From positions 1-32,000 of the forward strand of contig JAIRQE010000009.1 in the NCBI GenBank assembly GCA_031256725.1: a stretch of 32,000 nucleotides of DNA, read 5' to 3'. The DNA comes from Propionibacteriaceae bacterium. Lineage in GTDB: Bacteria; Actinomycetota; Actinomycetes; Propionibacteriales; Propionibacteriaceae. The notes under the pieces were generated by a model, which was not told where the DNA came from, did not search any database, and worked only from the letters and a program-made list of their open reading frames with translations. A program made the translations under genes and the position numbers. Below are positions 19,900 through 32,000 of this stretch, piece after piece (within the stretch, counting starts at the first letter, position 1; every line of letters begins with the position of its first letter).

Positions 19900-20193
19900 A
19901 TGGCAAATGTGAATGTAACCTACGAGGAGATGCGCACTGCAGCTCAGAAACTGAACGCTGGCAAAGAGGAGATCAACAACAAGTTGGCCGAACTCAAGAG
20001 GTATATTGGCAATTTGGTGTCCAGCGGCTTTGTGACAGATCAGGCTTCGGTGAAGTTCAATGAGACCTACACCACTTACACCACTGGGGCAACTCAGACC
20101 ATCAGTGCACTGGAGGACCTCGCAAATTACCTGAATGTGGCAGCGAATGCCATGCAGGAAACCGATTCCCAACTGGCCGCCGGCCTCGGCTGA
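19900..20193 (+). CDS. esxA: WXG100/ESAT-6-like small secreted protein (T7SS substrate), Trp-less variant
   Basis: AAGGAG at 19886-19891, ATG at 19900. 97 aa, two-helix pattern. N-terminus MANVNVTYEEMRTAA and C-terminus AMQETDSQLAAGLG parallel firmicute EsxA (…VQEQDQQLSNNFGLQ). The hairpin turn reads SSG (20020-20028) where WxG is expected. Confidence 0.82.
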   Translation: MANVNVTYEEMRTAAQKLNAGKEEINNKLAELKRYIGNLVSSGFVTDQASVKFNETYTTYTTGATQTISALEDLANYLNVAANAMQETDSQLAAGLG

Positions 20194-20194
20194 T

Positions 20195-20791
20195 ATGACT
20201 TCAATTATTGGCCTCAGTGGTGCTTCGGGCCAGGACTGGTATTCCTGGCCCGTAGGCACTACTGCATCAACGAAAGAATCCCTAACAGATCGTTTCTCAC
20301 AGGAACCCGACCTCTTGGCCACAACTCTGGACGCTATTTCAAACTGTGACGCTCAGGCTCATGATAGAGGTGCTTCCATAGCTGGGGTCTGGATGCCAAG
20401 CATTACAGAGGGGCAAATCGTTGCTCATATGTGGGCTGGGGTTATACCTGATGCTCAAGATACAGATCTTCGATCTGCCCGACGATATGAGAGAACAATT
20501 CGTGATCGAGGATTCGATGAAGAAACCACGGTCTACTCTCAGCTGATTCAACCCTTTTACGCCGGTGATGTTGAAGGACTTCTGGTTGTGGAAACACGCG
20601 CAGAGGGCGACGGGGCGGAGCCTTACATCTTGGCTCGTGCAATCTACTTTCCAGTATGGACAACAGACCGTGTTGTCTTCGAAGCGATCTCCTCACTCGA
20701 CTTTCTTGAAGGCTTCATTCTTGATGTTGCTTTGATGGCTTCTTCCGTCACAATGACACCCTCAGGCACTAACGAAACGAACAAAACATGA
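20195..20791 (+). CDS. Hypothetical cytoplasmic protein in the T7SS-like operon
   Basis: ATG at 20195 lies 1 nt after the esxA stop. 198 aa with no TM or signal peptide. No family recognised by eye. Confidence 0.6.
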   Translation: MTSIIGLSGASGQDWYSWPVGTTASTKESLTDRFSQEPDLLATTLDAISNCDAQAHDRGASIAGVWMPSITEGQIVAHMWAGVIPDAQDTDLRSARRYERTIRDRGFDEETTVYSQLIQPFYAGDVEGLLVVETRAEGDGAEPYILARAIYFPVWTTDRVVFEAISSLDFLEGFILDVALMASSVTMTPSGTNETNKT

Positions 20792-21648
20792 CCCGCCGTT
20801 TTTCATTCGTTCTTCCCAATACTGATTGGTGGAGGATCCCTCTAGCTTTCCCAGACTCTCGTGCAATGGCTATTGATCGCTTGATCGACGACCGCTTTCC
20901 TAACGTCGACTATGCGGCTCAACTTCGGCATGAAGTTCGCCAAGAACTTACCGAGCAAACCACCAATGCCGCTCGGTTGGGTGGCGTGGTCATGGCCTTC
21001 TTTCTCATGACAAACGAGGAGCATCCTATTTCAGCCAACATGACCTGTTACGACCTTACTGGCCTGATGGCTTTACCTGATGAGCTCGACCCCACAGTCA
21101 TCCTGGCTGAGTATGTAGGCGACAAGGACTTGGCCGAGTCTCTCCCATCCTTGGGTGAAGGCATGATGCCAGATGAGGTACGATCCGCGATCAATTCGTC
21201 CACTGTGGACGATTCTGACGATAGTGAAGCTCTTGGTACCAGGGCACATAAGTCTGAGACTGCAATATATGACCTGCGAAACAGGTTCATGAACAGGCCC
21301 GACATCATTGAGGAATTGGATCGCCTCGCAACTGAAGTCAATGATCTCGATTCAGACAAGGAATGGATTCGAGTCGAGACTCATGGAATGCTCAGTTATC
21401 GTACCCATTACGTTATAGAGGGAAATGATCATTTTGGTGAGGATACCCCAAAGATCCCTAGCCTTCAGATCCATTACCTTCAAGTAATTCCCCATTTTGG
21501 TTTATTGCAAACCACTTTCTCTACACCACTCATTCAGCTTCAGGAATTCTGGTTCTCCTTGTTTGATGCCATTGTGGCAACTTTCCGCAGTGGGGCTCCC
21601 GAAGTAGAAGAGTTTATGGCCGCACCTCAGGAGGTACGACATGGCTAG
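20788..21648 (+). CDS. Hypothetical cytoplasmic protein in the T7SS-like operon (possible distant paralog of the preceding gene)
   Basis: ATGA start/stop overlap at 20788-20791. 286 aa with an acidic central insert. The C-terminal third shows weak by-eye similarity to the previous protein (VET...xYxxV...S...F..D.I pattern). Confidence 0.62.
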   Translation: MTRRFSFVLPNTDWWRIPLAFPDSRAMAIDRLIDDRFPNVDYAAQLRHEVRQELTEQTTNAARLGGVVMAFFLMTNEEHPISANMTCYDLTGLMALPDELDPTVILAEYVGDKDLAESLPSLGEGMMPDEVRSAINSSTVDDSDDSEALGTRAHKSETAIYDLRNRFMNRPDIIEELDRLATEVNDLDSDKEWIRVETHGMLSYRTHYVIEGNDHFGEDTPKIPSLQIHYLQVIPHFGLLQTTFSTPLIQLQEFWFSLFDAIVATFRSGAPEVEEFMAAPQEVRHG

Positions 21649-29981: not shown

Positions 29982-30005
29982 TATTATTCTCCTTTGGAAT
30001 CAAAG

Positions 30006-30746
30006 TTATTCTTTGTCGTTTATAGTGACGGGTGTATTGAGTAGCTTTAAGTCAGCACTTGATACAAAACCAGTGGAAATAGCCCATTCAACCAAGCATG
30101 CTCGGCGACCACTCGCATGGGTATGCACTCCACCTCTCATACCCTCGACGCCCAATTTGTCGAGTTTCGAACAGACGTTATCGATCTTCTTCTCAAAACG
30201 TTTCACTGGCCAACCGATCCGGGCAGCCGCAGATGCGTTGGTTGGTATCCTCGCAACACCTAGGCCTTCACGCAGCAACATGGGTTCGGCTAAAGCAAGA
30301 ACCGCCAGATGCTGAGCTTGGGTCCAGCCGATTTCACGTACTGTCGTGTCCCCATCCGAATCGATATGCGGTATGGCCACTTGCCATCGGGGCTCATCAT
30401 TGAGCAAGGTCACCCGATAATCACAAGGACCTGCCGTGAACACCACCTCAACTCGATTAAAAACCACTGGCAGACGTGATGATGGACCGAGCCATGCTTG
30501 GAGACCAGTCACTTGATCATGGACTGTAGCTCCCAATCCTGTGCCAATGTTGGCAAGCCACCAGAATTCATTTTCAAAAGATATCCGTAAGAACCTTCGA
30601 TGAAGGTAAGGATTATTGTCAAGACATAGATCCGCATCACGACCAATATCGAAGACTCGATCTGGACTCAGAGAAACTCTCTGTCCCTCGTATTCCACGA
30701 TAAGACCTGAGATCTCTTCAATACCATCAATGTCGACTATGCTCAT
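30006..30746 (-). CDS. FHA domain protein with C-terminal helix-turn-helix-like region
   Basis: ATGA overlap with the kinase stop at 30743-30746; an ATG at 30755 is also possible. The N-terminal FHA-like pattern is VFDIGRDADLCLDNNPYLHRRFLRISFE...ANIGTGLGATVHD; GR is present but SxxH is not evident. The C-terminal IPTNASAAARIGWPVKRFEKKIDNVCSKLDKLGVEG resembles a LuxR/GerE-type HTH. Confidence 0.72.
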   Translation of the reverse strand: MSIVDIDGIEEISGLIVEYEGQRVSLSPDRVFDIGRDADLCLDNNPYLHRRFLRISFENEFWWLANIGTGLGATVHDQVTGLQAWLGPSSRLPVVFNRVEVVFTAGPCDYRVTLLNDEPRWQVAIPHIDSDGDTTVREIGWTQAQHLAVLALAEPMLLREGLGVARIPTNASAAARIGWPVKRFEKKIDNVCSKLDKLGVEGMRGGVHTHASGRRACLVEWAISTGFVSSADLKLLNTPVTINDKE

Positions 30747-32000
30747 CCTGCACATCCTTGTGCATCAGGAGAACCATTCCCATGTCGCAGAATCTTGACC
30801 TCGATACACACCATGGTCTGCCCTTCTTCAAGTTTGATAGTGGCTTGTGGAAGACTGGCGATTGAGGGAGTGACGTCCTCGGCTCCAATAATCACCCAAC
30901 GGTACTTGTCTCCATCCTGGGGATCAGGGTTGGTCCACGTGAATTCCGCTACACCTCTTTGCGCGTCTACAACCCCTGTAACATCAACAGGGGTTGGTGG
31001 TATTGCCGCACCCACTGGATCCTGAGGATTAGCGACAGTGGCTGTCGGCGATTCCGCCACACCAACGGGATCTCTGGGTTTACCAGTCATAGCGATCACT
31101 GCAATCACACCGCCAATGACCAGCAGAACAACTACACCGATGATGATTGGCCACGGGATTGTTTTTGGTTTAGGTTCAGTGGTCGACCAAGATTGAACAG
31201 GCGGAGCAGTAGGTACTCCTTCCGATTCCTCTAAGGAGCCTTTCGCCCTCCAAAGAGTCTCCTCAACCGCATCTGTTGGGCCAGTACCAGGGCGACGAAG
31301 CTGAGTTCTATCGATAGGAGCAGGTGGGCCACTATACATTTCCACTGGTGGTTTAGGCACACTGGGTTGTGGCGCAGTAGTACTCCAACCGCCAGGAGCT
31401 GTTGAGGGTGTTGATGCTGTGGGATCAATGATGGATATGGGTCTTAGACTGGTACCAACAATGTCATCATCATCACTATCCAGACCCTGCGAGGTTGAAT
31501 CATCAAAGATATCCATCTGAGTTGGTCTGAGACTAAGCTCGAGCTCTACTTCTCGTAAAGCCAAACCGAATGCCTTCATGGAAGGGTACCGTGACTGTGG
31601 CGATTTCGCCATGGCAGTCGCTAAGACTTGATCAAGGGAAGCAGGTGCATCGACCCGCCCCAGTGGTACATATGGCTCATTTCTGATTCGATGGATCAGC
31701 GCATGTGGTTGCTTGTTCCCTTCCCCTGGGATTTCAAACGGAGCCCGACCTGTCAAGAGCGCATATATTGTAGCTGCAAGCGACCAGATGTCGGATTGTC
31801 GCGAAGGTCTCGGATTACTATCAAATGATTCCGGCGGACTCCATGGAATCGACAACCCCTGTGCCTTACCTCGCTCAGCCTCGGCATTGGTCATCGCGAT
31901 TCCAAAGTCTCCCAAAACAGGACGACCGGAACGATCAACAAGAATATTCGCTGGCTTAATGTCTCGATGCAGAATTCCTTGCGAAGATGTCTCCGCCCCA
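30743..32000 (-). CDS. Membrane Ser/Thr protein kinase, N-terminus cut by the window edge
   Basis: The minus-strand frame is open to position 32000. Translation reads ...LHRDIKPANILVDRSGRPVLGDFGIA...PWSPPE...DIWSLAATIYALLTGRAPF, so the catalytic loop, DFG and APE-like motifs are intact. The track's start at 31915 is a TTG inside the kinase domain. A disordered linker follows, then one TM helix (~31088-31153) and a ~110-aa extracytoplasmic domain with two Cys. Confidence 0.9.
   Translation of the reverse strand, partial: GAETSSQGILHRDIKPANILVDRSGRPVLGDFGIAMTNAEAERGKAQGLSIPWSPPESFDSNPRPSRQSDIWSLAATIYALLTGRAPFEIPGEGNKQPHALIHRIRNEPYVPLGRVDAPASLDQVLATAMAKSPQSRYPSMKAFGLALREVELELSLRPTQMDIFDDSTSQGLDSDDDDIVGTSLRPISIIDPTASTPSTAPGGWSTTAPQPSVPKPPVEMYSGPPAPIDRTQLRRPGTGPTDAVEETLWRAKGSLEESEGVPTAPPVQSWSTTEPKPKTIPWPIIIGVVVLLVIGGVIAVIAMTGKPRDPVGVAESPTATVANPQDPVGAAIPPTPVDVTGVVDAQRGVAEFTWTNPDPQDGDKYRWVIIGAEDVTPSIASLPQATIKLEEGQTMVCIEVKILRHGNGSPDAQGCAG

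Follow-up and report, generated by a model that had tools for sequence, protein, structure and literature searches.

The stretch of DNA considered here, termed the window, comprises positions 1 to 32,000 of contig JAIRQE010000009.1 from a Propionibacteriaceae bacterium, and from position 19900 onwards it harbors the genes of a type VII secretion system (T7SS) organized around an ATPase of the EssC/EccC type. The locus is, with good likelihood, a chromosomal Esx/T7SS cluster of a Propionibacteriaceae metagenome-assembled genome (MAG), belonging to a widespread actinobacterial family in which EssC carries fused ubiquitin-like (Ubl) and FHA domains, and it is placed tail-to-tail with a phospho-signaling operon of the Esr type. 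The Esr threat-sensing pathway was described in Schaalia odontolytica F0309 (Wang et al., bioRxiv Sept 2026; PMC13622651) and encompasses a surface sensor with Ig repeats, MoxR, a vWA protein, a transglutaminase, a kinase, a phosphatase and an FHA output protein that is phosphorylated in its disordered linker; the named components include the sensor EsrA with its terminal beta-propeller, the transglutaminase EsrD, the kinase EsrE, the PP2C phosphatase EsrF and the output protein EsrG. In the operon beside EssC the order is probably an Ig-repeat surface protein (seen in a sister genome only), MoxR, DUF58, a TgpA-type transglutaminase, a zinc-ribbon FHA protein, PP2C, an EsrG-like protein, the kinase and an FHA-fold protein of 246 amino acids, here called p246.

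The assignment to the T7SS is supported by two features of the cluster, namely a WXG100-family member, a small protein of helical-hairpin type, 97 amino acids in length, and a membrane-bound ATPase of the FtsK/SpoIIIE type with three P-loops. The latter, EssC, matches Pfam FtsK_SpoIIIE (E 2.5e-51) and has Walker A motifs at residues 680, 1012 and 1293 as well as two transmembrane segments, and the EssC-type triple ATPase with an FHA domain that a preliminary description of this DNA had recognized is thus borne out. It scores 571 bits with the firmicute EssC model TIGR03928 (cut-off 778), 340 bits with the EccCa model TIGR03924 and 321 bits with the EccCb model TIGR03925, all below the respective cut-offs, and its best sequence match in the PDB is T. 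curvata EccC.

The N-terminus of EssC sets this family apart. An AlphaFold2 model of residues 1-260, built from an alignment with 13 homologues, gives residues 1-88 the topology beta-beta-alpha-beta-beta-helix-beta at a predicted local distance difference test score (pLDDT) of about 80. Matches to the Pfam YukD family agree with this fold and are weak, being found for 7 of 33 homologous segments with a best E of 0.0036; other ubiquitin-type families are matched too, and there are weak PDB matches to ubiquitin and SAMP1. The Ubl-FHA architecture proposed at the outset is supported by these findings. The single FHA domain that follows finds GarA, OdhI and FhaA, all of them FHA proteins that bind phosphothreonine, as its best Foldseek matches, with TM-scores of 0.86-0.90. 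Among the residues that bind phosphothreonine in such domains (GR, SxxH and NG), G127, R128, S142 and H145 are invariant and N163 is nearly so across the 13 homologues, and the domain is on this basis predicted to be phosphothreonine-competent. The Ubl-FHA-EssC architecture is absent from the T7SSa to T7SSj scheme of Garrett, Higginson and Palmer (2024; PMC11217815) and is unnamed in the text of both that paper and PMC13622651. A reading of the ATPase as a conjugative DNA translocase was considered and set aside, as it fits neither the WXG100 proteins, nor the effector with a T7SS_signal domain, nor the matches to EssC-specific models.

The link between this EssC type and the kinase/FHA module extends well beyond the window. 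When the conserved EssC N-terminus was used as a probe against one genome per species, 80 loci were recovered, and co-occurrence was counted both in a tblastn matrix and from open reading frames (ORFs). Of the 80 loci, 60 have p246, 62 the kinase, 54 the EsrG-like protein, 53 PP2C and 51 the transglutaminase. The kinase/FHA module is present in 43 of the 55 informative loci, defined as those whose upstream flank extends for 9 kb or more, so that the co-conservation of kinase and FHA genes with EssC, which had been raised as a question, now has an affirmative answer. In all but three of these 43 the module is co-directional with EssC and immediately upstream of it, and these 40 loci share the one-strand order MoxR, DUF58, transglutaminase, FHA, PP2C, EsrG-like, kinase, p246, EssC. 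The gene immediately upstream of essC is mostly that for p246, and in 19 loci there is a 4-nt overlap between its stop codon and the start of essC. Only in the window's clade is the module inverted and downstream of essC. The host genera include Brachybacterium, Microbacterium, Agromyces, Arthrobacter, Sinomonas, Herbiconiux, Cnuibacter, Actinomyces and Nocardioides, and Pfam-annotated neighborhoods agree with the synteny counts. The Ubl-FHA EssC family is also present in Schaalia canis and in oral Actinomyces.

Two further members of the family may be mentioned. In Mycobacterium sp. IS-1742 (locus L055, 9254-14404) a Ubl-FHA-EssC gene follows that of a zinc-ribbon RDD protein with PP2C nearby, and there are no Ecc genes or Esr module within 10 kb. 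The MAG Lab288P4bin79 carries two EssC genes of the family (loci L006 and L046), one of which adjoins men genes and EsxA-type substrates with no Esr module, while the other is preceded by genes for p246, FHA and transglutaminase.

Within the window the signaling operon is represented by three minus-strand genes, for the kinase, p246 and a membrane protein of 215 amino acids. These had been taken for an operon of three coupled by an ATGA overlap; the coupling is real, the kinase stop and the p246 start forming ATGA at 30743-30746, but the trio is the tail of an operon of about ten genes that continues past 32000. This is seen on L001, a longer copy of the window's contig in which a given position corresponds to the window coordinate less 14900. 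Upstream from the kinase, L001 encodes a 487-aa FHA protein, PP2C, a 249-aa FHA protein with a zinc ribbon, a transglutaminase, a TgpA_N membrane protein, DUF58 and MoxR. The transglutaminase matches Transglut_core (E 5e-13), the phosphatase PP2C_2 (E 7e-8) and MoxR the families bpMoxR, AAA_3 and AAA_5; MoxR lies directly beyond the window together with DUF58, which we take to be a member of the vWA class. The operon therefore holds MoxR with a vWA-class partner, a transglutaminase, a Ser/Thr kinase, PP2C and an FHA output protein that has both an N-domain and a disordered linker, as an Esr pathway does. In the sister genome L085, where the genes are arranged as in the window, a 2007-aa protein with Big_9, cadherin and fn3 domains is encoded upstream of MoxR. 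The TgpA-type transglutaminase is split in the window's lineage into overlapping genes for a 324-aa TgpA_N and a 415-aa Transglut_core protein (L001 20498-22688), and is found unsplit, at 764-872 aa, in L082 (1434-3818), L083 (284-2902) and L085 (11191-13485). At the other end of the operon, the 215-aa LRV_2 protein has homologues in the vicinity of EssC in only eight other loci.

The kinase displays only its HRD and DFG motifs within the window because its ORF runs past the window end. The full protein of 550 amino acids on L001 has GHGGFADVY as its glycine-rich loop, VAIK, HRDIKPAN and DFG (Pkinase E 5.5e-33), and is hence predicted to be catalytically complete, in keeping with the intact Hanks kinase of the preliminary description. 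It has one transmembrane segment, at residues 417-435, and an extracellular tail of about 115 residues.

The p246 protein had been described as an FHA-helix-turn-helix (HTH) protein of 249 residues. The called gene starts at 30746 and gives 246 residues, and the 249-aa FHA protein on L001 is the product of a distinct gene. The FHA fold of p246 was upheld by an AlphaFold2 model with a pLDDT of 89 from an 87-sequence alignment, the N-domain of which finds Rv1747 FHA-1 (E 3e-6) as well as GarA and OdhI with Foldseek. The HTH did not fare so well: p246 gives weak HTH_8 and wHTH Pfam matches, neither the protein nor its five-helix C-domain alone finds anything significant in Pfam or PDB-profile searches, and an HTH in this protein is a guess. 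The serine of the SxxH motif is replaced (PYLH in the alignment), and for that reason p246 is probably a degenerate phosphothreonine reader. The family is a large one, with 610 representative clusters at E<=0.001, and is without a Pfam model.

The 487-aa EsrG-like protein has a C-terminal FHA domain (Pfam, 23.8 bits against a cut-off of 20.7), and its linker contains three copies of DHDG[H/M]T[I/V]. Homologues from Herbiconiux, Actinomyces, Microbacterium, Arthrobacter and Nocardioides, but not those from Brachybacterium, carry the related motif (D)DHDGxT[V/I/L] at a distance of 50-100 residues upstream of the FHA domain. The threonine of DHDGxT[V/I] is a candidate phospho-acceptor site, as judged from this conservation.

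On the secretion side, the WXG100-like protein of the preliminary description is confirmed, since the 97-aa protein matches Pfam WXG100 (E 4.2e-17, 62.6 bits against a cut-off of 27.3) and TIGR03930 (E 4e-13, 49.3 bits against 44.85). It contains no tryptophan; the motif at the hairpin reads S-G-F, of which G43 and F44 do not vary across 14 homologues, and the eponymous WXG has thus been replaced in this family. It is not, as first supposed, the only Esx-type protein. The 494-aa protein opens with a second WXG100/EspC-like hairpin, and so the cluster contains an EsxA/EsxB-like pair, a non-identical WXG100 pair being a feature of the T7SSa. Its N-terminal 105 residues match the EsxA family at 91.5% in hhalign (E 8.8e-7), and among 12 homologues nine match T7SS_ESX_EspC and six WXG100 in Pfam. 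The tail of the protein is rich in Pro, Glu, His and Ser and varies from 0 to about 390 residues across homologues, which total 95-497 residues. In the window this disordered tail (21956-23125) contains the His/Pro-rich repeats HPGHG and HPEHG.

The 568-aa protein is a candidate secreted effector on the strength of its domain matches. It matches PF21725 T7SS_signal (E 6e-4), along with a weak PPE match in Pfam, and PF21725 is found in 7 of 12 homologues (best E 9.8e-8). The homologue of Buchananella hordeovulneris (L007 14670-16379), whose gene lies directly downstream of essC, has a TNT domain at its end, TNT being the tuberculosis necrotizing toxin, and with this tip the family looks like one of polymorphic toxins or effectors. 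The 198-aa and 286-aa proteins have no match in Pfam or NCBIfam, their profiles find nothing among PDB sequences, and profile comparison reveals no relatedness between the two. Both are specific to the window's clade, homologues of the 198-aa protein being found in only five other loci.

Table 1. Genes and domains of the secretion cluster and of the adjoining signaling operon (window coordinates unless stated)
Feature	Position	Strand	Basis
WXG100 protein gene (EsxA-like), 97 aa	19900-20193	+	ORF listing
198-aa protein gene	20195-20791	+	ORF listing
286-aa protein gene	20788-21648	+	ORF listing
494-aa protein gene; WXG100/EspC-like helical hairpin, about residues 1-105, with WDDRR motif, then disordered tail of about 390 aa	21641-23125	+	ORF listing
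568-aa candidate effector gene; helical T7SS-signal-type N-domain, then hydrophobic Gly/Ala/Ser-rich C-terminal region, one predicted transmembrane segment (residues 339-357)	23159-24865	+	ORF listing
EssC/EccC-type ATPase gene, 1478 aa; Ubl, FHA, two transmembrane segments, DUF region, three P-loop domains	24901-29337	+	ORF listing
EssC residues 1-88, ubiquitin-like domain (beta-grasp, YukD-like), fused in cis	24901-25164	+	AlphaFold2
EssC residues 103-194, single FHA domain	25207-25482	+	Pfam FHA E 5.8e-11; AlphaFold2 pLDDT about 90
215-aa protein gene; LRV_2 N-domain, two C-terminal transmembrane segments (156-174, 194-212)	29334-29981	-	Pfam LRV_2 E 3.4e-17
p246 gene; FHA-fold domain, then five-helix domain	30006-30746	-	start at 30746
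Membrane Ser/Thr kinase, C-terminal 419 codons of 550 aa	30743-32000	-	translation; Pfam Pkinase
EsrG-like 487-aa protein gene; N-domain, disordered linker, zinc ribbon, C-terminal FHA	L001 17495-18958 = window 32395-33858	-	

The plus-strand cluster is made up of six genes according to both the ORF listing and a direct reading of the junctions (Table 1). The preliminary description counted seven; its coordinates, its 1-nt gap and its 4-nt and 8-nt overlaps all hold, and the intergenic gaps are too short for an extra gene. The 97-aa and 198-aa genes are separated by a single nucleotide (TGAtATG), the 198-aa and 286-aa genes overlap by 4 nt (ATGA) and the 286-aa and 494-aa genes by 8 nt. Gaps of 33 nt and 35 nt, which contain the Shine-Dalgarno-like sequences AGGAG/AGAGAG, precede the 568-aa gene and essC. 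As had been noted, the stop of essC overlaps the end of the minus-strand operon: the convergent stops of essC and of the 215-aa LRV_2 membrane-protein gene share the palindrome CTAG at 29334-29337, leaving no space for a terminator between the two operons. EssC of the window is identical (100%) to MDR0488374.1 of a Propionibacteriaceae MAG. Its closest relatives come from the bins Nt197, Lab288 and Hs463, which we take from the isolate names to be termite-gut bins; the records state no source.

Further upstream, esxA is divergent from a menE-like gene across an intergenic region of 78 bp. That gene belongs to a set of menaquinone-pathway type at 15006-19821, comprising a TPP enzyme, an enolase-superfamily enzyme, a UbiA prenyltransferase and an AMP-binding ligase, which are read as menD-menC-menA-menE. 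NlpC/P60 and M23 peptidase genes are found at 12444-14840. Another Ser/Thr kinase, which is PknB-like and bears three PASTA repeats, is encoded at 6087-8075, some 12 kb upstream, and is presumably a housekeeping cell-wall kinase.

As for the membrane core, the preliminary description recognized none of the canonical T7SSa or T7SSb membrane genes, and none has come to light. No Pfam family for EccB, EccD, EccE or MycP was found in ORFs of at least 120 residues in window 1-32000 or in the called genes to about 39300, and EssA, EssB and EsaA gave no Pfam or NCBIfam match between the first position of the window and about 39300. The surroundings of EssC homologues likewise yielded no canonical T7SSa or T7SSb membrane genes, and EccB, EccD, EccE and MycP are missing beside EssC in seven annotated neighborhoods, which include complete genomes and one Mycobacterium. 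The locus departs from the T7SSb in further respects, as its kinase-fold membrane protein has apparently intact catalytic motifs where EssB is a pseudokinase, and its EssC has one canonical FHA domain and a fused Ubl in place of two phosphothreonine-incompetent FHA domains and a separate EsaB/YukD. A tentative extension of these observations, which we hold to be possible and somewhat doubtful, is that Ubl-FHA-EssC, p246 and the active membrane kinase constitute a distinct T7SS architecture outside the a-j scheme, in which a fused ubiquitin-like keystone and a working kinase replacing the EssB-type pseudokinase would allow phosphothreonine-dependent assembly of the core, with no need for an EccB/D/E/MycP or EssA/EsaA partner.

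A mechanism can be outlined, every step of which, including the identity of the phosphorylated protein and of the ligand of the EssC FHA domain, we infer for this organism. The surface protein and the MoxR/DUF58/transglutaminase part would sense an external cue. The membrane kinase would then phosphorylate threonines in the disordered linkers of FHA proteins, with DHDGxT[V/I] as the candidate site. FHA domains, including that of EssC, would read these phosphothreonines and thereby switch EssC assembly or substrate selection, upon which the EsxA/EsxB-like pair and the 568-aa effector would be exported. Finally, PP2C would reset the system. What can be observed directly is the gene content, the identity of the domains, the intact catalytic and phosphothreonine-binding residues and the conserved synteny.

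A number of points weigh against the reading of the locus as an Esx cluster governed by an Esr operon. About 20% of the EssC-type loci, such as those of Propionicimonas and Mycobacterium sp. IS-1742, are without the module within 10 kb, and the coupling of EssC and module is thus not obligatory. The inversion of the module in the window's clade means that co-transcription with essC has been lost there. The candidate surface sensor is seen only in sister genome L085, the EssC of which has 72% identity. The AesB motif GYNVP/GYVNP was sought in all loci and gave only a chance match in MoxR. Use of the same EssC family by the system of S. odontolytica F0309 is likely, but putative. The organism itself is an uncultured MAG, and the locus is known from its genes alone.

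Other explanations of the locus differ in what the module does and in what the secretion machine is. It is possible, if rather improbable, that the kinase/FHA module acts on transcription only, p246 being a DNA-binding protein, itself phospho-regulated, that controls the esx genes, and the machine not being gated. It would then be comparable to EmbR and EspM, regulators in which FHA and HTH domains are combined. The FHA fold and conserved five-helix domain of p246, its weak HTH_8 and wHTH matches and its position directly upstream of essC in most genomes would all suit such a role, and Esr1 of S. odontolytica acts at the transcriptional level (PMC13622651). However, the HTH finds no significant Pfam or PDB-profile match, p246 has lost its SxxH serine, EssC bears a canonical FHA domain of its own that is predicted to bind phosphothreonine, and the esx-adjacent Esr2 acts after translation, governing how a subset of the Esx substrates is secreted (PMC13622651). 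That the secretion genes and the kinase/FHA operon are neighbors by mere coincidence is very improbable: the operons are indeed convergent in the window, and therefore not co-transcribed there, and some 20% of related loci are without the module, but the two occur together with the same gene order in 43 of 55 loci from several families, and p246 and essC overlap by 4 nt in 19.

With regard to the class of machine, an ordinary T7SSa with EccB, EccD, EccE and MycP encoded elsewhere in the genome, and hence nothing reduced, is unlikely. The source genome is an incomplete MAG of which about 44 kb was examined, the EsxA/EsxB-like pair is as in ESX systems and the best PDB match of EssC is an EccC; against this, the missing genes are equally absent near this EssC type in the seven annotated neighborhoods, EssC falls below the cut-offs of both EccC models, and the Ubl resides on EssC, whereas in the T7SSa it is on EccD. 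Membership of the T7SSd is distinctly unlikely. This class, from Olsenella and Bifidobacterium, is the only actinobacterial type among the T7SSc to T7SSj defined by Garrett, Higginson and Palmer, and is defined without any ubiquitin-like component (PMC11217815). The locus shares with it a WXG100 protein, an EssC FHA domain with GR, SxxH and NG residues and hence predicted phosphothreonine competence, a single-pass membrane Ser/Thr kinase and, as judged from the sister genome L085, a very large Ig-repeat protein nearby. Yet EssC opens with a Ubl, its N-terminus has no similarity to the TsdC N-terminus printed in the supplement of PMC11217815, none of 10 accessions of the Ubl-FHA EssC family is in the lists of that paper, and MoxR, DUF58, transglutaminase, PP2C and FHA genes are extra to the T7SSd. 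On account of the Ubl, the differing N-terminus and the missing accessions, the locus is not assigned to this class, and the Ubl-FHA-EssC cluster with its Esr-type operon is retained as the preferred description.

The preliminary description suggested for this locus a reduced or differently built T7SS gated by threonine phosphorylation, of a kind that was not known to have been reported. The first part is reasonable and is backed by published work on relatives; the second is outdated. Variant T7SS clusters were found in 2024 to hold kinases, phosphatases and FHA proteins, and threonine phosphorylation was suggested to control their assembly or activity (PMC11217815). In 2026 the idea was tested in S. 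odontolytica, where an esrA2 mutant loses secretion of AesA and AesB with protein levels unchanged, and 40% of 3502 Esr pathways, in Actinomycetales and Propionibacteriales, were reported to adjoin esx genes (PMC13622651). As the pairing was thus proposed in 2024 and tested experimentally in a relative in 2026, the locus is a further example of it and not a discovery.

If our reading is true, the window adds a Propionibacteriaceae case of termite-gut type to the link between Esr and Esx secretion, and it offers three concrete handles. These are the FHA domain, predicted to be phosphothreonine-competent, on the secretion ATPase itself and beside a fused Ubl; the uncharacterized p246 family directly upstream of essC, with its overlapping stop and start codons in 19 loci; and the conserved DHDGxT motif as a candidate phosphorylation site. 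With them, the route by which Esr signaling reaches the secretion machine becomes testable by point mutation. The apparent absence of a membrane core partner, moreover, bears on what a minimal type VII machine is.

Four known systems invite comparison. PpkA-PppA-Fha1 is the threonine phosphorylation pathway of the H1 type VI secretion system of Pseudomonas aeruginosa. The likeness lies in the logic, in which a membrane kinase and a PP2C phosphatase are joined by an FHA protein that switches on a secretion machine after translation; the machines are unrelated, and in the present case the secretion ATPase has an FHA reader of its own as well. Much closer is the Esr2/Esx system of S. odontolytica (PMC13622651), with which the locus and its relatives share an operon for an Ig-repeat surface protein, MoxR, a vWA-class protein, transglutaminase, kinase, PP2C and FHA output, as well as substrates with helical N-domains and disordered tails. 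Propionibacteriales are named in that paper among the principal hosts. In contrast to Esr2, the module and essC are convergent here, two genes encode the transglutaminase, and two stand-alone zinc-ribbon FHA proteins and p246 are present.

The T7SSc, T7SSd, T7SSe and T7SSj (PMC11217815) resemble the locus in being clusters of neither the a nor the b type with a membrane Ser/Thr kinase, a PPM phosphatase, FHA proteins and an EssC FHA domain with predicted phosphothreonine competence, and the T7SSc also has a vWA protein, a class that we take to be represented here by DUF58. They differ from it in having neither a Ubl fused to EssC nor a MoxR/DUF58/transglutaminase set. In the T7SSb core of Bacillus subtilis, which is composed of YukB (EssC), YukD (EsaB) and YukC (EssB), YukD is wedged between the FHA and DUF regions of EssC, and the EssB pseudokinase is bound to the FHA part (PMC12637312). 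An N-terminal FHA region on EssC, a ubiquitin-like part and a single-pass membrane protein with a kinase fold are common to that core and the present locus. Here, however, the Ubl is in cis, there is one FHA domain and not two, its phosphothreonine-binding residues are kept, the kinase motifs are intact and EssA and EsaA are lacking. By analogy, Ubl-FHA-EssC and its genuine membrane kinase may be read as a cis-fused, putatively phosphorylation-competent counterpart of the B. subtilis core.

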